Both the position numbers and the translations under genes were made by a program. Below the pieces are notes generated by a model, which made no database searches, was not told the origin of the DNA, and worked only from the letters and a program-made list of their open reading frames with translations. Shown here piece by piece: positions 2,859-22,546 of a DNA stretch of 64,000 nt. The DNA is from a virus. Taxonomy: Duplodnaviria; Heunggongvirae; Uroviricota; Caudoviricetes. The stretch lies in the IMG/VR virus record IMGVR_UViG_3300045988_145635; one strand, given 5' to 3'. Each line of letters opens with the position of its first letter. Position 1 is the stretch's first letter.

Positions 2859-3003
2859 GTAAGTGTTTACCTATCATTTTAAATCATGTATCTTATCGGC
2901 GTCAGGATGACAATGTGTCGGTAAGACACAGTTCCAGGATGGAACGAGAAAGGCGGCTGGCAATCGCCAGCCGCAACTCTTTCTGACACTGGATGGAGTC
3001 CAC

Positions 3004-3498
3004 ATGGCACGTCAAACCTATTTCACTTCTGCAACTAAACGTCCTCGTTCACTACGTCAAATTTTGGCCGAATTATTTAGCGGTCGTGTTCTGTCACGTC
3101 TTGATGAACTAGAGACTGCCGTTCGGTTGCTGAATGAACGTTTAGATAAGCAAGCGTCAGTTGTTGCGAACGTGGGGGCGATTGTTACCTCTGGTTCTTC
3201 ACGCGAAGCGAAAAGTACACGGCCTTTAGTGAAGGAGAAAAACAACAAGGACAGTTCGAATGGAAAATTTTCAAAGAAAGAGGCTGAAACCAATGGCCTA
3301 CGTTCTCATTATAGTTTCACTGGCGACGGTAGCCGTTCCAGCCGGCCAGAGCCTTTTGATGCCGGGTTCATCCATCACCACACCTCCGTCGACGACAATT
3401 ACCACCACTCCAGTAGAGCGTCCTGTCACTCTGGATGGGATGACGGTGGATGCGATACCTCAAGTTCATCCAGTTACTCAGGATCATGCTGTGACTAA
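3004..3498 (+). CDS. Hypothetical protein (Ser-rich low-complexity C-terminus)
   Basis: ORF with GGATGGAG upstream; an overlapping alternative frame encodes a hydrophobic peptide so the true frame is uncertain. Confidence 0.3.
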   Translation: MARQTYFTSATKRPRSLRQILAELFSGRVLSRLDELETAVRLLNERLDKQASVVANVGAIVTSGSSREAKSTRPLVKEKNNKDSSNGKFSKKEAETNGLRSHYSFTGDGSRSSRPEPFDAGFIHHHTSVDDNYHHSSRASCHSGWDDGGCDTSSSSSYSGSCCD

Positions 3499-3507
3499 GG
3501 CGGTTGT

Positions 3508-3705
3508 ATGAACTGGTTTTCAAATCACTTTGGAAAAACTTGGCTGGCGATTCTGGCTTTCATAGCTCTCATGGCCGCCGGTTGGGTATCGAACATTGTA
3601 AAACTCGTTTGCTCTGGTGATCTCCAGTTTCAGGCTGGTATGACCTTGGCTCGTGTTGTTGGGATTTTTGTTTTTCCAGTCGGTTCGGTACTTGGTTATT
3701 TCTGA
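3508..3705 (+). CDS. Small membrane protein (2 predicted TM segments)
   Basis: 65 aa, hydrophobic stretches LAILAFIALMAAGWV and VVGIFVFPVGSVLGYF. Confidence 0.4.
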   Translation: MNWFSNHFGKTWLAILAFIALMAAGWVSNIVKLVCSGDLQFQAGMTLARVVGIFVFPVGSVLGYF

Positions 3706-6148: not shown

Positions 6149-7834
6149 ATGAATACAGCTCTTTCCATCATCGACGATGCCAACTCAAACACTGCTATCG
6201 ATTATCGTCAGGAAATGAACGTCATCCACGAAATTGTGGCCGAGTGCGAGAAGGAGATCGCCTTCATGTATCAGGTTCACGACTTCGTTTATGGAGACGA
6301 ACGCCACAACATGATTAATCGCCTGCTGCAACTGAACCACCGACCAGATGAAGAACGCTCACGTTTGAATCGAGCTTGGCTGGATAAAGTCGATCTGGAA
6401 TGGGTGAAACAGAATATTTGGGCCGAGTACTGGAGGAAGGTCACGGATATGACTAACGTTCTGCTGATCATGCCAGCTTCCCGTCGCGACGAGTGGCGTG
6501 AGCAGTTTATCGAGGGTAAGCAGGAAGTCATCAAAACTGACAGAACCGGCTATCAGATGAAGGTAAAAGAGTTCGTTGGTGTACCGGAGTTCAAAGCAGA
6601 AACGGTCATACCCACGATGCTTAATTTGCTGAATGACAGGCACAAATATCTCTCTGAGCGCGTGTATGGCTTGTTTAAGGCGCTGAGTCCTGCGCACAAG
6701 ACAAATAAGACAAACGGTTTCAGCGAACGTCTGATAATCGCTGACTGCATTTCTGATTTCTGGCGGGACAGCGTTAGTGTGAACTATCGCAAAGAGGACT
6801 ATATCGACGATCTGCGTGTCTTGCTTCATTTCTTCGCGCACAAAGAATTTATTACCATCAACCGCACTGCTGAGGTGCTATCAGCTGCGTATCGGGCAAA
6901 CGACTGCCAGACCGGTGACTGGATGAACGTCGATGGAAATCTGATGCGCGTGAAGATGTTCAAGAACGGCAACGTTCACTTTGAAATACATCCTGACGTG
7001 GCCTGGAAGTTGAATGAGGTGCTGGCTTACAGTATGCCTGCTGCAATCCCCGCGCCATGTCGCACCGCGCCAAAAACACGGGCACCAAAGCAGTTCGGGT
7101 TAATCCAGAAGACGATCTCCGTGCCGGTTCGCACTGCGCTTCGTGACGGGCGATTGAGCAAAGACAAAGGCGTATGGTACTTCTCTGATTCAGCTCTCCA
7201 GAAGTCGCAGGTGGAAGAGCTTGAGCGCACACTGAGCTTCATTGGCGGCGTGCAGGAGAAAAAGCACTGGCAGTTCCCGTATGACATCGTCCATACGCTA
7301 AATACGATTGTGGCTACCGGTTTAATACCGGATACAAAATCACACCAGTTCTACCCTACCCCACGCTTGATTGCTGAGTACGTTGCCAGAGCCACTGAAT
7401 TGAAGCCTGGTGAGAAGCTGCTGGAGCCTCAAGCCGGACGTGGGGATCTTCTGGCCTATATTAACGCCGATCTGGAAGATGTTACCTGCATAGAAATCGC
7501 ACCTCTCTTCGCTGATATCCTGCGTGGAAAAGGGTATACGAACACGATTTGCTGCGACTTCATAAAGTGGTCTGAGGACAACGTAGGTTATCAGTTCGAC
7601 AAAATCGTTATGAACCCGCCGTATTCGCTTGGTCGTCATAGAGAGCACACGCTGGCTGCGCTGGGGCATCTGAAAGTCGGCGGGCGTCTTGTAGCAGTAT
7701 TGCCGGGCACTGCGCCAATACTGGACTGGATGACGATGGATAATTACGTTTATGCCAGAGGGAAGTCGTTTACCAACGAGTTTGAAGACACAGGGATCAC
7801 AGTCAGCGTATACGTTTTCAAACGCGTTAAATGA
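6149..7834 (+). CDS. DNA methyltransferase, gamma-class N6-adenine type, with ~340-aa N-terminal domain of unknown function
   Basis: C-terminal motifs in gamma order: FYPTP (motif X), LEPQAGRGDLL (motif I), IVMNPPYS (motif IV). Confidence 0.7.
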   Translation: MNTALSIIDDANSNTAIDYRQEMNVIHEIVAECEKEIAFMYQVHDFVYGDERHNMINRLLQLNHRPDEERSRLNRAWLDKVDLEWVKQNIWAEYWRKVTDMTNVLLIMPASRRDEWREQFIEGKQEVIKTDRTGYQMKVKEFVGVPEFKAETVIPTMLNLLNDRHKYLSERVYGLFKALSPAHKTNKTNGFSERLIIADCISDFWRDSVSVNYRKEDYIDDLRVLLHFFAHKEFITINRTAEVLSAAYRANDCQTGDWMNVDGNLMRVKMFKNGNVHFEIHPDVAWKLNEVLAYSMPAAIPAPCRTAPKTRAPKQFGLIQKTISVPVRTALRDGRLSKDKGVWYFSDSALQKSQVEELERTLSFIGGVQEKKHWQFPYDIVHTLNTIVATGLIPDTKSHQFYPTPRLIAEYVARATELKPGEKLLEPQAGRGDLLAYINADLEDVTCIEIAPLFADILRGKGYTNTICCDFIKWSEDNVGYQFDKIVMNPPYSLGRHREHTLAALGHLKVGGRLVAVLPGTAPILDWMTMDNYVYARGKSFTNEFEDTGITVSVYVFKRVK

Positions 7835-11916: not shown

Positions 11917-12539
11917 GCACGGTAGCGAAAGATCTCACAGAAGATATTCTCAATGAAATTATTGCTGGTGCAAATACCTCGCTTGAGCAACTTCTTGCGT
12001 TAGCACTGAGAGCCGAACGTCGAGACAGAAATCGTTTTTATGAGCGATTACCAGGGAAGCGACCAGATAGATCGGATGAAGAAGGTTGCGATATAGACTA
12101 CATGGAGCCTTCAGAGATTTATCAACTTGGTAAAGATGACGGCTGGAACGCTTATCACGATGCTGTGATGAAGTTGGATGAAAAAGTTAAACCTCTTTCT
12201 CGACCGGTAGATCACGGTTTCCGCGATAACTGCGAATGCTCTAGTTGCCAGACCACGGCCCGTATTTGTTCCGAATTGACAGATAAGTCCAGCCTAATCT
12301 ACGAAGTTAATGTAGGCGGTAATACATGGGTCGAATGCACAAGAGCTGCATACGTAAGAGCAAAAGACAAGGGTGAATTAACCAGAGTTGTTACCAATCA
12401 CCCAAATAATGAGCTTAAAGATCACCAGATTCGAGAACTGGTGAACGAGTTGAGAGATATTGCGGTTCAGTACCACGGAACGCAGCAATTGCGGGAGAAG
12501 ATTGCCAGAGCAGTGAACAACTCAGTCCGTAAAAAATAA
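11913..12539 (+). CDS. Hypothetical protein
   Basis: ATGA overlap with upstream gene; followed by a hairpin terminator. Confidence 0.5.
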   Translation: MSTVAKDLTEDILNEIIAGANTSLEQLLALALRAERRDRNRFYERLPGKRPDRSDEEGCDIDYMEPSEIYQLGKDDGWNAYHDAVMKLDEKVKPLSRPVDHGFRDNCECSSCQTTARICSELTDKSSLIYEVNVGGNTWVECTRAAYVRAKDKGELTRVVTNHPNNELKDHQIRELVNELRDIAVQYHGTQQLREKIARAVNNSVRKK

Positions 12540-12556
12540 GCAATAGTACGATAAAG

Positions 12557-12583
12557 AGGCCCCATGCTCTTGATGGGGCCTGT
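12557..12583 (+). terminator. Factor-independent terminator closing the left-arm operon
   Basis: AGGCCCCA-loop-TGGGGCCT stem followed by a T. Confidence 0.5.
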
Positions 12584-13304
12584 AGCAACTAGCGTTATGG
12601 ACGCTGGTTTACGTACTCAATGATCGCTTTGATAATCGCGAACATCGGCGGCACGATTTTGAACAGTAAGTTAACCATAACAGGCCTCACTTAGTTTTAT
12701 CGCGCCTAGCTGCAAATACCTTTGGGCTTGCCTTTGCAGTTGCAATATCTGTAGTCGCCAGATACTTACGGCACGATTTCGAGTTAAGGTAAGGTTTTAG
12801 AGTCACCAAAAACCTGGACTTAAATCTTCTTTGAGAACAACGATGTTTAGTAAATGGTCATTATTACCTGGTATGACCACTCAACGTTTCTTGATGAATC
12901 CAGTACATTCGGTTAATCTTAATTCAGTCGCCAGATACTTATGGCTCAGGAACAGAGCCGCAAACTCTGTTTCCTTTTAAAAAGCCCAGCCTAGTCAACT
13001 GGGCTTTTTAATGTCTATTTTTAACCCAATGAACCTTCAATACCGCAACATCAGTGTCTTGCGAATTAAGATAGTGTGTATAGGTTATGCATGCAAGTGC
13101 ATAACTCTGTGGATAACTCAGGAAGGAAAAAGTAGCTTCCGCGCAATTTAGGCCAGACAAGGCTTTCGCAAAAGTCAACAGAGAGAAAAAATTTGTTAAA
13201 AATAACGTTTGTTGGAATTGTATATATTTATGCCTTTCAATAGTTAGCATCTTATTAACATCTTTTTTAAGAGATAGAGTTCAAAAATATATAGCTTCAA
13301 CATA

Positions 13305-13324
13305 TACTGTATGTGTATACAGTA
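13305..13324 (+). promoter_or_regulatory. LexA (SOS) box
   Basis: TACTGTATGTGTATACAGTA fits CTGT-N8-ACAG; 17 nt upstream of the UmuD-prime-like start. Confidence 0.65.
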
Positions 13325-13340
13325 TTAAGAGGCGAGTATT

Positions 13341-13730
13341 ATGGGCTTCCCTTCTCCTGCGGCGGATTATGCTGAGAGCCGTATTTCTCTTGATCAGCAG
13401 ATAATTAGACATCCTTCAGCGACCTACTTCATGAGGGCAGCTGATAGTCATCATCGTGAGGGAATATTGCAGGGCGCATTGCTGGTGGTCGATTCCTCAC
13501 TTACCCCGGTTGATGGTTCTCTGCTTGTATGCGCTCTGGATGGGGAATATCGCGTAAAAAGATACCGGAAGTATCCACGTCAGCATCTGGAGGATTTAAG
13601 AACTGGTAAGAAGGAAGCATTGCCAAAGGATGACGATGGATGCACGGGCAGCAATGCCGTGTTTGGTGTGATCACTCACATTATCAACGACGCAAGAAGT
13701 GGCGAGTTTGATGATTGTCCTGTGATGTAG
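13341..13730 (+). CDS. UmuD-prime-like S24 peptidase-family protein (HumD-like, pre-truncated UmuD mimic)
   Basis: Begins MGFPSPAADY, i.e. at the position of the UmuD self-cleavage site; conserved Ser (ADS) and Lys (VKRYRK) positions; SOS box upstream. Confidence 0.7.
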   Translation: MGFPSPAADYAESRISLDQQIIRHPSATYFMRAADSHHREGILQGALLVVDSSLTPVDGSLLVCALDGEYRVKRYRKYPRQHLEDLRTGKKEALPKDDDGCTGSNAVFGVITHIINDARSGEFDDCPVM

Positions 13731-13767
13731 GAGAACTGTTTAGGTGGTGCAATGCACCACCTTTTTA

Positions 13768-14868
13768 TCACACTGCGCGGAATGCGATTTCGCCAGGTAT
13801 TACTTCACCTTGCCAATACATTTGGGCAGCAACGCGATCTGCGAGGTCACGATAAATAGCCGTAAATTCGCTATCTGGACGACTAATAACGGTTGGTGTT
13901 CCGTTATCCAGATCTTCACGAAGAGAGATATGAAGTGGCATTTGGCCTAACAACTGCGTGTTGTATTTCTCGGCCAGTTTCTGTGCGCCACCGGTGCCAA
14001 AAATTGGCTCGTGATGACCGCAGTTACTGCAAATATGCACACTCATGTTTTCGACGATACCCAGTACCGGCACTTCGACTTTTTCGAACATCACAATGCC
14101 TTTCTTCGCATCGATCAGCGCGATGTCTTGCGGCGTAGTTACCACAACCGCACCAGTTACAGGAATGTTCTGCGCCAGCGTCAACTGAATATCACCAGTG
14201 CCCGGCGGCATATCGAGAACGAGATAGTCCAGATCAGGCCATAGAGTTTCCTGCAACATCTGCATCAGCGCCTTGCTGGCCATCGGTCCACGCCACACCA
14301 TTGCATTGTCGTCGGTGACCAGATAACCAATAGAGTTGGTTGCCAGGCCATGAGACATGATAGGTGCCATGTGAGTACCGTCCGGTGAGGTTGGACGTTG
14401 GTTTTCCGCGCCCAGCATGGTTGGAATTGATGGACCATAGATATCGGCATCCAAAATACCAACTTTCGCACCTTCAGCAGCCAACGCCAGTGCCAGATTT
14501 ACCGCCGTGGAGGATTTACCTACGCCGCCCTTGCCTGAGCTGACGGCGATAATGTTCTTAACGCCATTAATGCCTGGTTGGTTTTTGACGCGCTTAAGCG
14601 TGGCAATGTTGTACGACAGCTTCCAGTCAATAGCCTTTGCGCCAGTGATACGGAGCAGATCACCACTACATTGCTCTTTCAGGTCTTCAAAAGGCTTATT
14701 CCACACGAAAGGCATGATTAGTTCGACATGCAGTGTGTCATCCATCAACGCAACATGGTGTAACGCTTTAAGCGTAGTCAGGTTGTGTTTCAGGGTTGGG
14801 TGCTGAAAATTAGCCAGCGTACCGGCTACCATTGCTCTCAGGGCATCCGGCGATTTGGACTCGCTCAT
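13768..14868 (-). CDS. apbC: Fe-S cluster carrier ATPase ApbC (Mrp)
   Basis: 366 aa; Walker A SSGKGGVGKSS, CxxC (CSNCGH); near-identical over its length to enterobacterial Mrp as I recall it. Confidence 0.93.
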   Translation of the reverse strand: MSESKSPDALRAMVAGTLANFQHPTLKHNLTTLKALHHVALMDDTLHVELIMPFVWNKPFEDLKEQCSGDLLRITGAKAIDWKLSYNIATLKRVKNQPGINGVKNIIAVSSGKGGVGKSSTAVNLALALAAEGAKVGILDADIYGPSIPTMLGAENQRPTSPDGTHMAPIMSHGLATNSIGYLVTDDNAMVWRGPMASKALMQMLQETLWPDLDYLVLDMPPGTGDIQLTLAQNIPVTGAVVVTTPQDIALIDAKKGIVMFEKVEVPVLGIVENMSVHICSNCGHHEPIFGTGGAQKLAEKYNTQLLGQMPLHISLREDLDNGTPTVISRPDSEFTAIYRDLADRVAAQMYWQGEVIPGEIAFRAV

Positions 14869-15025
14869 CCCGTCTCCTTTATTTTAATTTGCGCAATTGT
14901 CGCCTTGTAGTGTACTCCAGCTACGACATTTAATCATTTATGAGAAATGCTGTTATCACATGGCAGACATAAGGCCATTTTGTTACTATCAAGCCCCTTT
15001 TCACTACAAAGAAGTAATGCCTACT

Positions 15026-17059
15026 ATGACCCAAGTCGCGAAGAAAATTCTGGTGACGTGCGCGCTGCCGTACGCTAACGGCTCAATCCACCTCGGCCAT
15101 ATGCTGGAGCACATCCAGGCTGATGTCTGGGTTCGTTACCAGCGAATGCGCGGCCACGAGGTTAATTTCATCTGTGCCGACGATGCCCACGGTACGCCGA
15201 TCATGCTGAAAGCGCAGCAGCTTGGTATCACACCGGAGCAGATGATTGGCGAAATGAGTCAGGAACACCAGACTGATTTCGCAGGCTTTAACATCAGCTA
15301 TGACAACTATCACTCGACGCACAGCGAAGAGAACCGTCAGTTGTCTGAGCTTATCTATACTCGCCTGAAAGAGAACGGTTTTATTAAAAACCGCACTATC
15401 TCTCAGTTGTACGACCCGGAAAAAGGCATGTTCCTGCCGGATCGTTTTGTAAAAGGCACCTGCCCGAAATGTAAAGCGCCAGATCAATACGGCGATAACT
15501 GTGAAGTCTGCGGCGCAACATATAGCCCGACTGAATTGATCGAGCCGAAATCGGTGGTTTCTGGCGCTACCCCGGTAATGCGTGATTCCGAACACTTCTT
15601 CTTTGATCTGCCTTCTTTCAGCGAAATGTTGCAGGCATGGACCCGCAGCGGCGCGTTGCAGGAGCAGGTGGCGAACAAAATGCAGGAATGGTTTGAATCC
15701 GGCCTGCAACAGTGGGATATCTCCCGCGATGCGCCTTACTTCGGTTTTGAAATTCCGGACGCGCCGGGCAAATATTTCTACGTCTGGCTGGACGCGCCGA
15801 TTGGCTACATGGGTTCCTTCAAGAATCTGTGCGACAAGCGCGGCGATACCACCAGCTTCGATGAATACTGGAAGAAAGACTCCACCGCCGAGCTGTACCA
15901 CTTCATCGGTAAAGATATTGTTTACTTCCACAGCCTGTTCTGGCCTGCCATGCTGGAAGGCAGCAACTTCCGCAAGCCGACCAACCTGTTTGTTCACGGC
16001 TATGTGACAGTGAACGGCGCGAAGATGTCCAAGTCTCGCGGTACCTTTATTAAAGCCAGCACCTGGCTGAATCATTTTGACGCCGACAGCCTGCGTTACT
16101 ACTACACTGCGAAACTCTCTTCGCGCATTGATGATATCGATCTCAACCTGGAGGATTTCGTTCAGCGCGTGAATGCCGATATCGTGAACAAAGTGGTTAA
16201 CCTGGCCTCCCGTAATGCAGGCTTTATCAACAAGCGTTTTGACGGCGTGCTGGCAAGCGAACTGGCTGACCCGCAACTGTACAAAACCTTTACTGATGCC
16301 GCTGAAGTGATTGGCGAAGCATGGGAAAGCCGCGAATTTGGTAAAGCTATCCGTGAAATCATGGCATTGGCTGACCTGGCTAACCGCTATGTCGATGAAC
16401 AGGCTCCGTGGGTGGTGGCGAAGCAGGAAGGGCGCGATGCCGATCTGCAGGCGATTTGCTCTATGGGCATTAACCTGTTCCGCGTGCTGATGACGTACCT
16501 GAAACCGGTACTGCCGAAACTGACTGAACGTGCAGAAGCATTCCTGAATACAGAACTGACCTGGGATGGTATCCAGCAACCGCTGCTGGGCCATAAAGTG
16601 AATCCGTTCAAGGCACTGTATAACCGTATCGATATGAAACAGGTGGAAGCACTGGTGGAAGCATCCAAAGAAGAAGTGAAAGCCACAGCCGCACCGGTAA
16701 CTGGCCCACTGGCTGACGACCCGATTCAGGAAACCATCACCTTTGACGACTTCGCCAAAGTTGACCTGCGTGTGGCGCTGATTGAAAACGCGGAGTTTGT
16801 TGAAGGCTCTGACAAACTGCTGCGTCTGACACTGGATCTCGGTGGGGAAAAGCGTAATGTCTTCTCAGGCATCCGTTCTGCTTATCCCGACCCACAGGCA
16901 TTGATTGGTCGTCACACCATTATGGTGGCTAACCTGGCTCCGCGTAAAATGCGCTTCGGTATCTCCGAAGGCATGGTGATGGCTGCTGGCCCCGGCGGGA
17001 AAGATATCTTCCTGTTAAGCCCGGATGCTGGTGCTAAACCTGGCCACCAGGTTAAGTAA
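15026..17059 (+). CDS. metG: Methionine--tRNA ligase
   Basis: HIGH motif (ANGSIHLGH), KMSKS motif, zinc knuckles CPKC/CEVC, C-terminal tRNA-binding domain; start chosen at [11 protein letters not shown] (the ORF-track start at 14897 is an upstream extension). Confidence 0.96.
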
Positions 17060-17079
17060 TTAAACAACCTCTGTTCGCA

Positions 17080-17106
17080 ATGCCCGGCAACACGCTGGGC
17101 ATTTTC
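17080..17106 (+). terminator. metG terminator
   Basis: ATGCCC-loop-GGGCAT hairpin followed by TTTT. Confidence 0.5.
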
Positions 17107-17142
17107 ATATAGACACAATCCCTTCTGATTTACGCATACCCT

Positions 17143-17210
17143 AAAACAATTTGTTTTCTGCCTTTTGTTAATTGAGATAATAAGCCACATAAGAAAACAA
17201 ATTGTTTCGG
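17143..17210 (+). promoter_or_regulatory. Paired operator motif A sites (AAAACAATTTGTTTT and AAGAAAACAAATTGTTT) flanking a GATAAT -10-like hexamer
   Basis: Two palindromes 48 bp apart immediately upstream of the 17221 start. Confidence 0.55.
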
Positions 17211-17220
17211 AGTGGTTGAA

Positions 17221-17520
17221 ATGTTGAACATTACCCAAGCCTACCAGGTGGCATTGATCAGTTCATCTCATACATCAGAGGAAGATGCTCGTCGATTCAT
17301 GATCGCAAGCAATGAGCTGGATTGGGTTTCGCAAATTGACGGCGGTTGTATTGTCCACGCCGGGTTACAGGATGATGTCTGGAAAGACGACTTGCGTCGA
17401 TATGGTATATCCGAAGGCGCGATTGCTAACATTCAGAAAGTACTTGATGTAGGCTTTGACTCTGTACATTTTGATTGTGGTGCGCCGGTCGTTGAAGGGC
17501 TTGAGTGCTGGAACTGGTAA
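17221..17520 (+). CDS. Hypothetical protein
   Basis: ATG with GGAGTGG spacer; first cassette of right arm. Confidence 0.5.
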   Translation: MLNITQAYQVALISSSHTSEEDARRFMIASNELDWVSQIDGGCIVHAGLQDDVWKDDLRRYGISEGAIANIQKVLDVGFDSVHFDCGAPVVEGLECWNW

Positions 17521-17565
17521 CAGATATTAAAGCATTGGTAGTTTGTTTTTAGGATTATCAAAGAA

Positions 17566-18300
17566 ATGAAAAAGTTGAAAAGTTTAGAAATCCCTGGGAC
17601 TGGTTATAAATTCTTTATGGACAACGCGGAGTGTGCACCTAACGCGTTGGAAAAAATACAAAGTCTTATCAACAGCCTTACTGAAGAAGCGAAAGAACTG
17701 AAGAGCGAGGCGACAAAGGACAATACAGCTAAAATCCAATGCTTAAATCTCGTTTCTTATTGTTTATATCAAGTGTCCAAGACACTGATTAAAGGCAATA
17801 TCTATTACGACGATGAAGACACCTCGACACCTGAAGAAAAAGATAGCGATGAAGAACTCTATGAAGATATCTCTACTAGTGCGGGTCACGCTGCCTTCGA
17901 TGCTATGGGTAAATCGTCAGGCATCAGATCATTTGTTGAACAGAACAATTCGACAATAATGATTGAGTACTGTGAACAAACAAGCTCCAAGGCCATACAT
18001 GTTCTTCACGATGTTGCTGCAGGGGTTCGCTGTGAGGCTGAAGCGGTCAGAAAAGATGTATTTGGTGCAGACAGTAATACCGTGAAAGCGTTCATCAACA
18101 GTGCTCTGCTAAATTCTTACTCAAACCTTATCGTCAATGCGGCACTATGCGCAAATTCTGGTGAAGAACACATTGTCATAACCGAAACCAAATATGAGCA
18201 TCAACAGTCACCAACCATAGAAGAGGTAACTGCATTGGCTATCAAACAGGCGAGTGAAATTAGTGATGAAATTCTCTCTCTGCTAAACAAAACTAAGTAA
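17566..18300 (+). CDS. Hypothetical protein
   Basis: 244-aa ORF; no motif recognised. Confidence 0.5.
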   Translation: MKKLKSLEIPGTGYKFFMDNAECAPNALEKIQSLINSLTEEAKELKSEATKDNTAKIQCLNLVSYCLYQVSKTLIKGNIYYDDEDTSTPEEKDSDEELYEDISTSAGHAAFDAMGKSSGIRSFVEQNNSTIMIEYCEQTSSKAIHVLHDVAAGVRCEAEAVRKDVFGADSNTVKAFINSALLNSYSNLIVNAALCANSGEEHIVITETKYEHQQSPTIEEVTALAIKQASEISDEILSLLNKTK

Positions 18301-18379
18301 AACATTGATAATGGCGGTCACAATTTGATTCTTTTCTATAAGAATCCGTTGATCGCCACTACTCCCCTTCCATGCCTGG

Positions 18380-19200
18380 AATCACATCCTTAAATATCAA
18401 TAGGTTACAGTTGTTTATACCAATAAGAAAACAACTGAATAACAGATCAACGAAACATCAACGCTTTCACCCGATTTGGTCTAAAAAATTGACGTTTTCA
18501 CACATCACTGCTTATACCCGTAATTCTACGCAGCAGACAGCGCCACAGCGTCCAATTTTCACCACAGACGACCCAACACACTACCAACAAAAACACACGC
18601 TCAAAATCGTTCCCGTTGCGTTACATAACCATATAAACAACTTATTTTCAGGAATAACAAAACAACTAAATAACACATATGCCATTCCCAAAACAACCAA
18701 CCTCTTTATGGCAGGCTACCGAAAAGACCCACCTCTTCTTCCCAGGCTACCGGACAACCAACCTAACTTTCACAGGCAATCCGAAAACATTCATACGCGC
18801 GATACCCACGACACGCCATTACCCAAACAACGAAGAAACACCTGAACCACTGAAACCCCAACGAAGCCTGTTACCGCAAGGATTCTCTCAATCCCAAAAG
18901 ACACGAAACATAACAATCACGGGAAACGCCATTACCCAATACACGAATAACTACAAAAGCCCTTCACACACTCCAGACAAACAACTCAAACACAATAACG
19001 AAAGGAATCGCCCACCTGCCATTACTCCATACACGGAGAAGAACAATCACCAAAACGACGAGAACACCCCATAGAAGAACCACCGCAAAACGAACGAAAC
19101 CACATACACCGACAGAGAGAACAACACACCCAATTCACCAACAGAAATAGTCGCCGTATAGAACGTTCTGGAAGGAGTGAGCATTAACGCCTATAGAGAG
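18380..19200 (+). other. ORF-poor, strongly strand-asymmetric A+C-rich tract (G- and T-poor on the plus strand)
   Basis: ~0.8 kb dominated by A and C; contains short repeated CAGGCTACCG-like and CCACCTCTT motifs; six-frame ORFs here translate to low-complexity sequence. Confidence 0.55.
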
Positions 19201-19360
19201 GTTGAAACAGATAAAACACGAAGAAAACACAACATGTATAGCGAAGAAGCCAGGTATGTATAAGTGGGGAGGGAAGGAGGGGTGTCGCCTCCTTTTTCGT
19301 ATTTATTCAACTCCTGATTTTATCCCCCGTAACACCCCTACGGTCAGCCTTCGGTCCATA

Positions 19361-19497
19361 CAGGGAAAAGGTTGCATCCCGCTACAGAAACGGCTGGGTT
19401 GCCTTCGGGGAACGGCTGGGGATTTTCAGGGAAACGGTCGAGTTGCCTGTGTGGATTTCGGGAAAAGGCTCGATGCCGGTTCAGGAACGGTGGCGTA
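19361..19497 (+). repeat. Iteron-like array: six ~22-bp-spaced degenerate repeats (GGGAAA[A/C]GG core)
   Basis: Cores at about 19363, 19386, 19408, 19429, 19460, 19483. Confidence 0.6.
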
Positions 19498-19854
19498 CCG
19501 GTATAGCGTGAGGGAGAGTTGCGGCTGTCCACCTGTAATGTGCGGGAAGAAGAGAGGCGCTCACGTGCAGGCGAACTTACTTACCGTTGGACTCCCTCTG
19601 AATGCCCAGCTACAGCGTAATTGTGCCAGACAGTCAGCGGGTCACAATCGATTTCAGTAGGTTTTCGGGGAGAGGATTATTCTGCCCACCAGCCACCTTC
19701 GGCCACTAAATCAGAATAATGTAAAAAGTGTACTCGGTACTGAACCTGAAAACTCACTGCCAAAACCACATTCACCGGAATAAAATCCTTTTTCGCCTGT
19801 GCGTTATTGCGATAATAACACCAACAAGAAAACATGTTGTTTAAGGATTGCTTT

Positions 19855-20184
19855 ATGTTTGCAAATATCGACATCAACCAAATCAAGAAATTAACTCAAA
19901 AAGAGTTTGATCAGTTTTATGAGTTAGAAGGTTGGTCTTCCACTCTGATCAATTCGCGGTGGGTGCTTGAGCTGATGACTCGTGATGACGCACCTGCTTT
20001 GATGATTTGCGACATGGGTGAAGATGCTGACTTTATGGATATGAGCGAATTTTGTGTGGACACATACAACCGCAGCCAGAAGTACTACTTCACATGCGAT
20101 AGCGAAAATGACGTGATTTCTAAGGTCTATCTTCACCTCGTCCAGCATTGGGACGTTCAGGAGTTTCTTGAAGTATTCGAGTAA
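19855..20184 (+). CDS. Hypothetical protein
   Basis: AAGGA RBS; operator motif A at 19825-19846; own terminator at 20193-20213. Confidence 0.5.
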   Translation: MFANIDINQIKKLTQKEFDQFYELEGWSSTLINSRWVLELMTRDDAPALMICDMGEDADFMDMSEFCVDTYNRSQKYYFTCDSENDVISKVYLHLVQHWDVQEFLEVFE

Positions 20185-20338
20185 CCCCAACCAAAGCCAG
20201 CATTGCTGGCTTAACTTAATCTGTAGCCGCAGGGAAGAACCTGCATATCGCCCATGCACCTGATCAATATGCTTTGTAGCCGTTTTCTTACTGGTATTAT
20301 TTACGCCATTGAGAAAACAAGTTGTTTACGGAGTTGTG

Positions 20339-20650
20339 ATGAAAAAATCATTGGTTCTTGGTCTGGACAAAGACCAGAAGAGAAAAGAGAAGCCTGCGCT
20401 GGTTGCTCAATTAACTTTGCTGGACATCGTTGCCAATGGAACCTCTATTCGTCTGTTCCGTGAAACGGCGGTGTCTTTCGATAAAAACACCTTTACTCGT
20501 TATGTAATGAATGTTCGTCGCCAGCGTGGAAAAGGCTGGGTGGCATTTCAAAGAATGTGGCCGGAACATCAGCTCGAACTGGCTTTGATGGAAGTTAACC
20601 GCGTGGCCCAGCAAGAAATTCAGAGAGCATCAGTGATGGCAATAGCCTGA
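20339..20650 (+). CDS. Hypothetical protein
   Basis: ACGGAG RBS; operator motif A at 20307-20333. Confidence 0.5.
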   Translation: MKKSLVLGLDKDQKRKEKPALVAQLTLLDIVANGTSIRLFRETAVSFDKNTFTRYVMNVRRQRGKGWVAFQRMWPEHQLELALMEVNRVAQQEIQRASVMAIA

Positions 20651-20777
20651 TAATGTGCAAGTGGTAATTAGTCGACAGTACGACAGCCCCGCCATCCTTA
20701 CGGGGCTTTTTTTGTATTGTAAGTACATACTTACGATCATAGAATATAAAAATAACCAAAACACTACGGAGAGTGAA

Positions 20778-21173
20778 ATGACCGTTAAACGCGAAAAACT
20801 GACAGTTGATGTTTACTATGCCTCTGAAACCGCCGAAGGTAAGAATGTGGCAAAAATCACCGTTGTTACGTACAACACCGAAACTGGCGCCGAAGTCCAG
20901 GCCAGTACGATCGTGCGTAAAGGTGATGCCTCCGGCGGCGAGTACGAGACTCAATACCAGTCTATTTTCGATGCAACTGACCCGCTGCTGCTGAAAATCG
21001 AGAACTACTTCCGCCAGGTTGATGAAGAGGTGTTTGAAACCATGATGAATATGGTTAACACCGTATTCGCCTCCAGCCTGAATACCAGCACCACCTGGAT
21101 TGGCCAGTACGGTCTGCGCATTACCTCTGGCATTCCTGCCGACACCTTAATCCCTGAAAGCGTATTCGCTTAA
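20778..21173 (+). CDS. Hypothetical protein
   Basis: ACGGAGAGTG spacer before ATG; terminator hairpin upstream (20683-20712) and downstream. Confidence 0.5.
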   Translation: MTVKREKLTVDVYYASETAEGKNVAKITVVTYNTETGAEVQASTIVRKGDASGGEYETQYQSIFDATDPLLLKIENYFRQVDEEVFETMMNMVNTVFASSLNTSTTWIGQYGLRITSGIPADTLIPESVFA

Positions 21174-21290
21174 TCCTCTTTAAATGGCGCGTAAACCGCG
21201 CCATTTTCTTATACCCGATAACAATTTGTTTTCTGCCTTATCTGATTTGTGAAAATGATTTCACTGAAGCAACTTAATAAGGAAACCATC

Positions 21291-21665
21291 ATGGGACTTG
21301 ATATCTATATCGAGACACAGCCTAAAAACGATCTGAATAACGAGGCATCCAGAAAGCGGGTTGCTTACTTCTGTAAGTTCAATGCGCTCGTTGGGTGGAT
21401 GGAGCGCAACGTAGGTGAAGTCGAAAATTGTGAGCTTTTAGAATTAACGATGAATGACATTTGTCTTCTGAAAGCTCATTTGATGCACATAAACGAAAGT
21501 AATTGCGAAGAGTACTTGCCTACTCGGGAAGGTTTTTTCTTCGGCAGTCAGGAGTACGATGAAGGTTACTGGCATGATGTGGGGGAGTTGAAAGAGCTTG
21601 TGGAAGATCTGATTAAGAACCACGACTTTCACAATAACAGACTGACCTTCTGCGCCTGGTGGTAA
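21291..21665 (+). CDS. Hypothetical protein
   Basis: AAGGAAACC RBS; conserved promoter module upstream (21217-21262). Confidence 0.5.
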   Translation: MGLDIYIETQPKNDLNNEASRKRVAYFCKFNALVGWMERNVGEVENCELLELTMNDICLLKAHLMHINESNCEEYLPTREGFFFGSQEYDEGYWHDVGELKELVEDLIKNHDFHNNRLTFCAWW

Positions 21666-21666
21666 A

Positions 21667-21810
21667 TATGGGCGATTTCAAGAAACGCCTGAAGGAAAGA
21701 GCCGAGATGGTCAGAAAGCAAAACGCCTCTTCTGTCATCAGATACGCAAGGCAGTTTAGTCGCAACAACAAATCAGTTGAGGAAAAGATCCTTAGCGTAA
21801 TCGTGCGATA
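21667..21810 (+). CDS. Hypothetical small basic protein (47 aa)
   Basis: ATG 2 nt after the upstream stop; followed by AAGGCCACC-loop-GGTGGCCTT terminator. Confidence 0.3.
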
Positions 21811-22014
21811 ATTATTAAGGCCACCAGCATTGGTGGCCTTAAATGACCATCCTGTTTCCCGCAGGCTAAAACACCAACCTCTTACCTCCAGGCAACCGAC
21901 AAACCCACCTGTTCCCGTCCGGCTACCGCAACTTTCCACTTTGACGCCTTATTCGTACAACGATAATTAACACCAACAAGAAAACAATTTGTTATTTACG
22001 ATAAGGAATTAATC

Positions 22015-22497
22015 ATGAATTTTATCGCTACTGTAAACGCACCCGCACATGGCAATATCGCTGTAACGTTCTCTGACATTGAAAAACGAGTACTTGGTGC
22101 ATGGCGCGACAATGAGACGGTAGAACTGTCAGCACAAGAAAAATGCATTATTGCACGCGACATCATTGGCAATCGTCGTTACTCGCGGGTATTTGAGAAA
22201 GCGTATGTGGTAAATTCTGGATTCGGAACGTTCGTCTTTCCGGTGCGCTCCGGGCGATTCTGCCAGTCCAAGTTGATTGAGTTCGCTACGCAGATTTCTG
22301 TCTGGATTAAAACTCAATCGTCGTTCAAATTTTCCGACGATGAAGCAGTATCGCAGGGGATGCGGATCGCCAACAATGCAATTAAATGCAAAAACATTAC
22401 GTATACCGCTGGCGTTGATACATGGAAACTGTTTTGCGCTAACTTTATGCTGAATGTATACGCAAGCAACCGCATCCACATCCTTGATGGCGTGTAA
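22015..22497 (+). CDS. Hypothetical protein
   Basis: Operator motif A at 21977-21997; terminator hairpin at 22505-22528. Confidence 0.5.
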   Translation: MNFIATVNAPAHGNIAVTFSDIEKRVLGAWRDNETVELSAQEKCIIARDIIGNRRYSRVFEKAYVVNSGFGTFVFPVRSGRFCQSKLIEFATQISVWIKTQSSFKFSDDEAVSQGMRIANNAIKCKNITYTAGVDTWKLFCANFMLNVYASNRIHILDGV

Positions 22498-22546
22498 CTG
22501 AGAAGAGGGCCAGAAACGGCCCTTTCTCTATAGCCACCAGCTGCCG

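Follow-up and report, generated by a model that had tools for sequence, protein, structure and literature searches.

Rho loads onto RNA that is untranslated, unstructured and richer in C than in G, as in the Rho-utilisation (rut) sites of Rho-dependent terminators such as lambda tR1 (rutA/rutB) and trp t'. Other described systems with which a long non-coding phage sequence can be compared are transcription-activated or RNA-primed replication origins, sponge RNAs and type III toxin-antitoxin (TA) loci. Here we describe an A+C-rich, non-coding tract at positions 18424-19178 (+ strand) of a 64,000-nt stretch of DNA from the IMG/VR virus record IMGVR_UViG_3300045988_145635 (Caudoviricetes), the whole of which is called the window in the following. 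The window is a phage-plasmid of the SSU5/pHCM2/pLF82 (Cyrano) type. Among clinical Escherichia, Klebsiella, Salmonella and Enterobacter such elements are common, and they carry resistance genes, e.g. CTX-M-55 and dfrA51 on pEC332. In the literature on SSU5/pHCM2 origins, non-coding RNA and AC-rich phage RNAs we found no description of the tract, nor was a description found of the regulation or the lytic origin of SSU5-type phage-plasmids. Tentatively, we read the tract as an oversized zone for Rho loading and transcription termination.

A sequence-only reading of the window had reported a strand-asymmetric, A+C-rich tract at 18380-19200. The sliding-window skew calculation found the asymmetry to be highly significant. 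On the + strand, (C-G)/78 nt remained at or above 0.08 in an unbroken run of 755 nt from 18424 to 19178, such that the limits proposed before are right to within ~40 nt. Neither strand of the window has a longer C>G run, the second-longest measuring 275 nt, and the mean (C-G)/78 nt of the tract, 0.19, compares with a standard deviation of 0.086 across the window. The body of the tract consists of 40% A, 32% C, 13% G and 15% T. All 300-nt segments starting between 18401 and 18951 have an A+C fraction of 0.67-0.76 (peak 76%), while none elsewhere in the 64 kb reaches 0.65 (window mean 0.50, standard deviation 0.04); the tract is thus indeed unlike the rest of the window, as had been claimed. For 300-nt segments of the + strand between 18350 and 19250 the GC skew was -0.43 to -0.49 and the AT skew reached up to +0.59. 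At ~19200-19250 the excess of C over G switches sharply into an excess of G over C.

The tract is non-coding. In the RefSeq record of pEC332, which was annotated by PGAP, it lies inside a ~1.55-kb gap without annotated gene (window ~18300-19834), and in most plasmid records the matching region carries no annotated feature. Two open reading frames (ORFs), 18372-18845 (157 aa) and 18679-19074 (131 aa), had been called non-protein-like from their translations, and rightly so: the frames exist mechanically, are not genes and gave no coding signal in our tests. Long stop-free frames are expected here, since stop codons need T and T makes up 15% of the tract. The stop-free frames move between lineages, with no ORF common to the lineages and none conserved at the protein level. 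One recurrent frame (~18900-19160) is free of stops in SSU5-lineage and Klebsiella-lineage sequences; it lacks a start codon in SSU5 and in the window, where it also contains an in-frame TAG. Substitutions showed no 3-nt periodicity over the whole tract or over this frame (p of at least 0.45; one 280-column sub-window gave p = 0.048), and the homologues differ by insertions and deletions of 23, 31, 20, 12 and 1 nt. Between 18525 and 19176 there are two ATG, one TTG and zero GTG start codons. Searches of Pfam and PHROGs with three ORFs of the gap returned no family, compared with a PHROG match for all seven flanking ORFs tested.

Among ~110-kb non-mobilisable IncFIB plasmids of Escherichia the tract is matched at 95-98%. 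Its identity is 97% to phage Cyrano (pLF82), 70% to Salmonella phage SSU5 and 65-73% to Klebsiella phage-plasmids. A distant-mode search found it in 833 plasmids of PLSDB, and 243 of 5426 complete E. coli genomes carry it, every copy being plasmid-borne and never chromosomal. The 1.5-kb gene-free module that contains the tract is part of the conserved core of SSU5-type phage-plasmids and lies at the edge of the cargo region. The genes on its left vary by lineage (metG, apbC and humD in E. coli, ivy in Cronobacter, DUF262 and restriction-modification genes in Klebsiella), and the small genes on its right are conserved across lineages.

Thirteen homologues, which form three lineages with a mutual identity of 60-72%, have base frequencies of 35-41% A, 29-32% C, 14-19% G and 14-16% T. 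A distant IMG/VR lineage, in which the neighbouring protein is ~50% identical, aligns with only 47-49% identity over the whole module. Across ~700 nt it nevertheless contains 39.5% A, 29% C, 18% G and 13-14% T, followed by ~200 nt with 33-40% G, 6-11% C and many GGG runs. Between the deep lineages A<->C is the commonest class of difference (25-32%), and the differences are near random draws from the tract's own composition; among close relatives transitions prevail. The composition is thus conserved through a turnover of the sequence itself, and we propose that it is the composition that is selected. The maintenance of a strand-specific composition suggests that a single-stranded molecule, either RNA or single-stranded DNA, is involved. 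Spacing is also kept: the distance from the 5' hairpin box to the -35-like box (both described below) is a constant 155-156 nt across the 13 homologues (156 nt in the window), and from the -35-like box to the 3' hairpin it is 802-838 nt.

Two hairpins frame the tract. The conserved sequence starts at the 5' hairpin (18313-18357, + strand), directly after the variable cargo genes. In the window this hairpin has an outer stem GGCGGUCA/UGAUCGCC with one G.U pair, which makes the fold specific for the + strand, and an inner stem GAUUCUU/AAGAAUC. The apical sequence UUUCUAUAAG is invariant. The stems vary by lineage yet stay paired, the distant lineage having GUCAACCUCU/AGAGGUUGAU. Most of the 47 unique variants fold with -13 to -26 kcal/mol; exceptions are four Klebsiella-type variants, which fold differently, and pJN2-26, which lacks the left arm (-5.8 kcal/mol). 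Scanning a genome collection for the invariant-hairpin pattern returned mostly chance matches; the real ones were three SSU5-lineage contigs (two Kluyvera, one mis-binned metagenome-assembled genome).

On the other side a G-cluster patch, GUGGGGAGGGAAGGAGGGG, and the terminator-like 3' hairpin occupy 19265-19298 on the + strand, with the stem at 19273-19280/19288-19295 followed by U5. A terminator scan scored this hairpin of the window as an intrinsic terminator. Across the alignment 94.6% of its cells are paired, compared with 63-81% when the partners are slid, and at four pairs both partners have changed. Many sequences have G.U at four of the ten pairs, such that the fold works on the + strand only. 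Apart from this hairpin, RNAalifold found only weak structure in the G-rich half. Both ends of the tract (18333-18357 and 19259-19295) also contain the succession TATAAG, 8-19 nt, G(A)TCGCyAC and a pyrimidine run; in SSU5 the pair reads GATCGCCACTTTCCCC and GATCGCTACTTTCTCC, and a pattern search matched these two places only.

RNA transcribed from the + strand of the tract is predicted to fold weakly. For the 776-nt RNA 18525-19300 the minimum free energy (MFE) was -110 kcal/mol, compared with -177 kcal/mol for the neighbouring gene and -195 kcal/mol for the opposite strand. This corresponds to -0.14, -0.23 and -0.25 kcal/mol per nt, respectively, i.e. to ~40% weaker folding. The weak folding follows from the composition, since the z-score against shuffled sequences was 0.5. 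Composition and MFE thus agree with the earlier suggestion of an unstructured, C-rich, G-poor, rut-like RNA, as far as the predicted RNA is concerned.

To see the locus in lysogens we used strand-resolved RNA sequencing data of strain LF82 (GSE154648), re-analysed in PMC9928086 (table S1), which comprise ten samples given as log2(FPKM+5), FPKM being fragments per kilobase per million, with a floor of 2.32. The Cyrano phage-plasmid of LF82 is 97% identical to the window. Over the ten samples the upstream gene CYRAN_102 had values of 5.6-9.2, whereas CYRAN_103 (~18411-18767) and CYRAN_104 (~19257-19661) remained at 2.3-4.3 and 2.6-4.7, respectively (PMC9928086). From CYRAN_102 to CYRAN_103 the sense RNA dropped from 9.2 to 2.8 (PMC9928086). 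The downstream genes CYRAN_105-107 reached up to 7-7.8 in macrophage samples (PMC9928086), and even where they rose to ~7 CYRAN_103 stayed near the floor. Since CYRAN_103 and CYRAN_104 are near the floor across all ten samples, the module is transcriptionally cold in lysogens, even with both flanks active. A lytic-cycle transcriptome was not found.

Our first, tentative choice among the explanations is that the tract is a cis-acting, untranslated and unstructured Rho-loading zone, which ends transcription before the repeat array and the early genes on its right. We rank it first because it is the sole mechanism that follows directly from the composition. An alphabet of A and C would preclude base-pairing, leave almost no start codons and keep C well above G, such that in the enterobacterial host any RNA from the tract would emerge naked behind the RNA polymerase. 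The tract could then be an oversized cis-acting zone of Rho utilisation and termination for transcription that enters from the cargo genes on the left or begins inside, at a promoter-like site at ~18490 that a repressor would control. Transcription that has not ended before would do so at 19265-19298, at the hairpin with its G-rich patch. The unstructured RNA would be degraded back to the 5' hairpin, which would become the protected 3' end of the upstream messages, and read-through would reach neither the iteron-like array nor the early genes that operators control on the right. The tract is C-rich and G-poor over at least ~80 nt, has weak predicted structure and carries no sign of translation in its sequence, as expected of a rut site; the position at the cargo edge and the drop in the RNA sequencing data also fit Rho loading.

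Several observations weigh against this reading. A rut site needs ~80-100 nt and not 750 nt; nor does a Rho zone explain why the tract is so long, why it contains promoter-like boxes and operators, or why islands of it are conserved. These boxes and operators point in the same direction as the transcription that is supposedly blocked, and several sequence islands are conserved beyond what the composition demands. The YC-dimer density of 0.125 is no higher than the average of 0.124 for the - strand of the window. RNA is at the floor already within the first 100-450 nt. The SSU5, Enterobacter and Citrobacter lineage has no U-tract behind the 3' hairpin, and in some Klebsiella lineages the immediate upstream gene is on the opposite strand. 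Finally, both the action of Rho and the purpose of insulation are inferred.

The promoter-like site consists of a box pair at 18489-18518 (+ strand), in which TTGACG (18489-18494) is followed after a spacer by CTTATACC; with TATACC at 18513-18518 the spacer measures 18 nt and the predicted start is at ~18525. In 38 unique variants TTGAC and CTTA.A are unchanged, and the spacer is fixed in length and variable in sequence. The -10-like TATACC is poor, being without the usual T at -7, and a simple promoter scan missed the site. Just upstream, a conserved island (18420-18462, + strand) holds the half-site AAGAAAACAA of a palindrome, AAACAAnTTGTTT, ahead of ATCAACG direct repeats; the distant lineage has the full palindrome AAACAAcTTGTTT in place of the half-site. 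A copy of AAACAAnTTGTTT at 18635-18647 is imperfect in the window, SSU5 and Klebsiella having it in perfect form. Allowing at most one mismatch, the window contains 13 copies (3762, 4491, 9032, 17144, 17195, 18635, 19830, 20315, 21219, 21982, 32736, 32761 and 61939), compared with 0.14 expected according to an estimate from base frequencies that is not tool output. Since most copies are flanked by the -10 box and the ribosome-binding site of small genes on the + strand, AAACAAnTTGTTT looks like an operator, and may be that of a global regulator of early genes. The best-conserved island of the body is nearly invariant and lies at 19016-19063 (+ strand), where a copy of the GCCATTAC..ACGGAGAAGAAC box has the sequence CTGCCATTACTCCATACACGGAGAAGAAC..CCAAAACGACGAGA; degenerate copies of the GCCATTAC box are found at 18676, 18810 and 18923.

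The main alternative is that the 1.5-kb module is a lytic replication origin with an origin-linked transcript, which we consider possible, if on the whole improbable. Loss of the repressor would fire the promoter at ~18490, and the G-poor leader would stay off the template up to the G-cluster patch and the iterons. At the G-rich region an R-loop or a primer would form, or transcription would activate the origin; alternatively, the G+T-rich bottom strand could be the priming zone. Several features speak for such an origin. Directly downstream lies an iteron-like array of six direct repeats c(a/g)GGGAAAmGGctgg with a 22-bp period (19358-19504, + strand). Its spacing is 22, 22, 22, 31 and 22 bp in SSU5 and pTB212 and 22, 22, 22 and 31 bp in the window, where the sixth copy was placed by eye. 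The Klebsiella and Cronobacter lineages have shorter arrays, also with 22-bp spacing, which is thus found in all lineages examined. The suggestion of a single-strand initiation or origin region, made in the sequence-only reading, gains some weight from this array. Between tract and array there is a conserved A+T-rich segment of ~35 bp (19292-19325), the switch from C>G to G>C is sharp and in the distant lineage extreme, and the putative transcript ends in G clusters. Operators on either side of the promoter-like boxes and the silence of the locus in lysogens would also suit an origin. The phage-plasmid furthermore encodes its own DnaE, DnaB-like helicase, ligase, 5'-3' exonuclease and RNase HI (the latter frameshifted in pEC332), and a lytic origin of these elements was not found described. 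The plasmid replication origin itself was rejected as an explanation: the iterons of RepA lie beside repA, 34 kb away, and are unlike the repeats at 19358-19504. The conserved hairpin, which is a good intrinsic terminator in the window, stands between the putative transcript and the repeats and thus argues against an origin. Neither an initiator gene nor a conserved DnaA box was identified, and we know of no origin that needs a 750-nt A+C-rich leader. The cumulative GC skew of the whole plasmid was uninformative, because nearly all genes point one way and gene orientation dominates it. The repeats are a candidate for a second (lytic) origin, but they may instead be an array to which a regulator binds.

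A trans-acting early non-coding RNA of ~775 nt, reaching from ~18525 to the hairpin at 19298, appears unlikely. It would bind or titrate a factor for single-stranded RNA, such as Rho, S1, cold-shock proteins or a phage protein that recognises GCCAUUAC and the 30-nt boxes of the tract. Such an RNA would be delimited by a promoter-like start and a terminal hairpin, both on one strand, the operators imply regulated expression, and conserved islands and repeated boxes stand within an otherwise free-running sequence. However, the motifs of known RNA-binding regulators are not enriched: the tract contains two (ARN)4 motifs (1.6 ± 1.5 expected) and eight GGA (6.1 expected). The earlier idea of an ARN-rich protein-binding RNA is therefore not borne out, both motifs being no commoner than the composition predicts, and a sponge for Hfq (ARN) or CsrA (GGA) was rejected. 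Rfam 15, searched with all families at E ≤ 1 on both strands of 17000-22500, gave no match. Complementarity to the rest of the phage-plasmid was nowhere above chance (best 14 nt, E = 0.27), and an antisense regulator was rejected accordingly. Moreover, the RNA is at the floor in ten of ten samples, including those with rising neighbouring early genes, and Rho should cut short an untranslated C>G RNA.

The 30-nt boxes look like sites on DNA. The sequence-only reading had noticed motifs that recur in the tract and reappear at 21850-21920, and these proved to be 30/31-nt units. Three tandem copies with the consensus ACCnACCTCTT-N6-CAGGCTACCG lie at 18691-18786 (+ strand; pM64 has a fourth copy of the 31-nt repeat), and a second cluster of three 30-nt copies at 21841-21932 (+ strand) lies 10-110 bp upstream of the promoter of a phrog_1641 gene. 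In SSU5 the second cluster (~7480-7560) occupies a divergent promoter region beside a 'repressor-like' gene. This location near promoters and a repressor-like gene suggests that the 30-nt repeats are DNA sites for a regulator, which speaks against the trans-acting RNA; the divergent-promoter setting in SSU5 also weakened the repeats as candidate rut modules. A small gene at 21669-21841 (CYRAN_109 in Cyrano) is expressed at ~58 FPKM in lysogens. At its 3' side is a perfect 8-bp hairpin, GGCCACCA-GCAT-TGGTGGCC, that contains the reverse complement of Chi (CCACCAGC); the CCACCAGC octamer occurs again at ~19687 in a conserved block.

Doubtful to about the same degree as the trans-acting RNA is the idea of a 'blank' RNA, i.e. 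one that is unstructured, codon-free and G-poor, and that would either position an R-loop primer at an unrecognised iteron-type lytic origin or serve as an early phage decoy for Rho. Were it true, pure base composition would be the functional signal of a bacterial long non-coding RNA.

Still less likely, in our view, is that the tract is a DNA-level array or a relic that arose from duplicated A+C-rich promoter-leader units of early genes. It would now provide low-affinity sites for a regulator, RNA polymerase or a recombinase, be a recombination zone at the cargo edge, or have little function. Units at 18411 and 18642 show a weak similarity to the early-promoter leader AACACCAACAAGAAAACAA, the GCCATTAC boxes weakly resemble the promoter unit, and the 30-nt repeats recur upstream of another promoter. 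Recombination and changes in repeat number do occur, as illustrated by a crossover inside the tract of pTB212 and by the extra repeat of pM64. However, protein sites on double-stranded DNA need no strand asymmetry over 800 bp, and a neutral relic would drift to the average, while four lineages keep base frequencies and length. The operator half-site words AAACAA (5 copies) and AAAACA (6 copies) are also not significantly over-represented in comparison with ~2.4 expected (a composition estimate, not tool output). A low-complexity Pro/Thr/Asn/Gln/His-rich protein, finally, is very improbable: the stop-free frames of 157 and 131 codons, the recurrent frame open in SSU5 and Klebsiella and the hypothetical proteins annotated here in some records are outweighed by the low T content, the lineage-specific, startless or TAG-interrupted frames, the substitution and indel patterns, the missing Pfam and PHROG matches and the lack of annotation in pEC332 and most other records.

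Some further observations concern the surroundings and the rearranged copies of the module. The cargo in the window (~12000-18300) includes a full-length methionine-tRNA ligase (metG), apbC and a HumD-family gene, carried here on a phage-plasmid. Plasmid pTB212 is a recombinant: left of ~18650-18700 it is 90-92% window-like, and right of the crossover it is 96-100% like the SSU5-type plasmid pCUVET18-789.1. In a plasmid of K. pneumoniae NY-06 (locus ~2900-3700) the tract breaks off into unrelated sequence that resembles the end of an insertion sequence; we judged this truncated copy uninformative. In several Klebsiella plasmids of 140-240 kb only the first part of the module is present, blastn matching the first third.

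The consequences differ between the two leading explanations. If the tract does hold off transcription through Rho, this would explain how a plastic cargo with foreign promoters can reside beside lytic genes without triggering them. If it belongs to a lytic origin, it would mark the element on which an understanding, or a block, of induction-driven amplification depends. Either way, base composition rather than sequence would be under selection, which ordinary homology and motif searches would miss.

Compared with described systems, the similarity to type III TA loci (ToxI and phage pseudo-ToxI) lies in tandem direct repeats of ~30 nt with a copy number of three or four among relatives. The tract differs in that its repeats measure 30-31 nt rather than 34-36 nt, in that the second cluster lies upstream of a promoter and in the absence of an adjacent ToxN/AbiQ-type gene. 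The ORFs tested downstream of either repeat cluster had no Pfam match, the real genes among them matching only PHROGs of unknown function, and with no toxin gene this system was rejected. With sponge RNAs such as CsrB/CsrC and CrcZ the locus shares repeated short boxes in a single-stranded context on a long non-coding, here putative, RNA; it differs in its box sequences, in lacking GGA and A-R-N enrichment and in not being expressed in the available data.

The transcription-activated or RNA-primed origins with which we compared the module are lambda ori activated from pR, P1 oriL under P53/Op53, T4 oriF/oriG, ColE1 RNA II and the mitochondrial LSP-CSBII system. As in these origins, a putative promoter under repressor control points toward a stretch rich in A+T and an array of direct repeats, the transcript would end in a patch of G clusters, and the element has an RNase HI gene of its own. 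In contrast to the folded RNA II, the leader predicted here is unstructured; in addition, no antisense regulator was found and a hairpin terminator precedes the repeats.

The Rho-dependent terminators named at the outset share with the tract an untranslated, weakly structured RNA in which C is well above G, a stable upstream hairpin that is able to protect a trimmed 3' end, and a sharp fall in RNA abundance, seen here in lysogens. The tract differs from their rut sites in being ~10 times longer, dedicated, conserved and gene-free and in having its own promoter-like site, operators and repeated boxes, its dependence on Rho being our own deduction. Should the Rho-loading zone prove to be the correct reading, the tract would represent an unusual, oversized and dedicated version of a known type of element.

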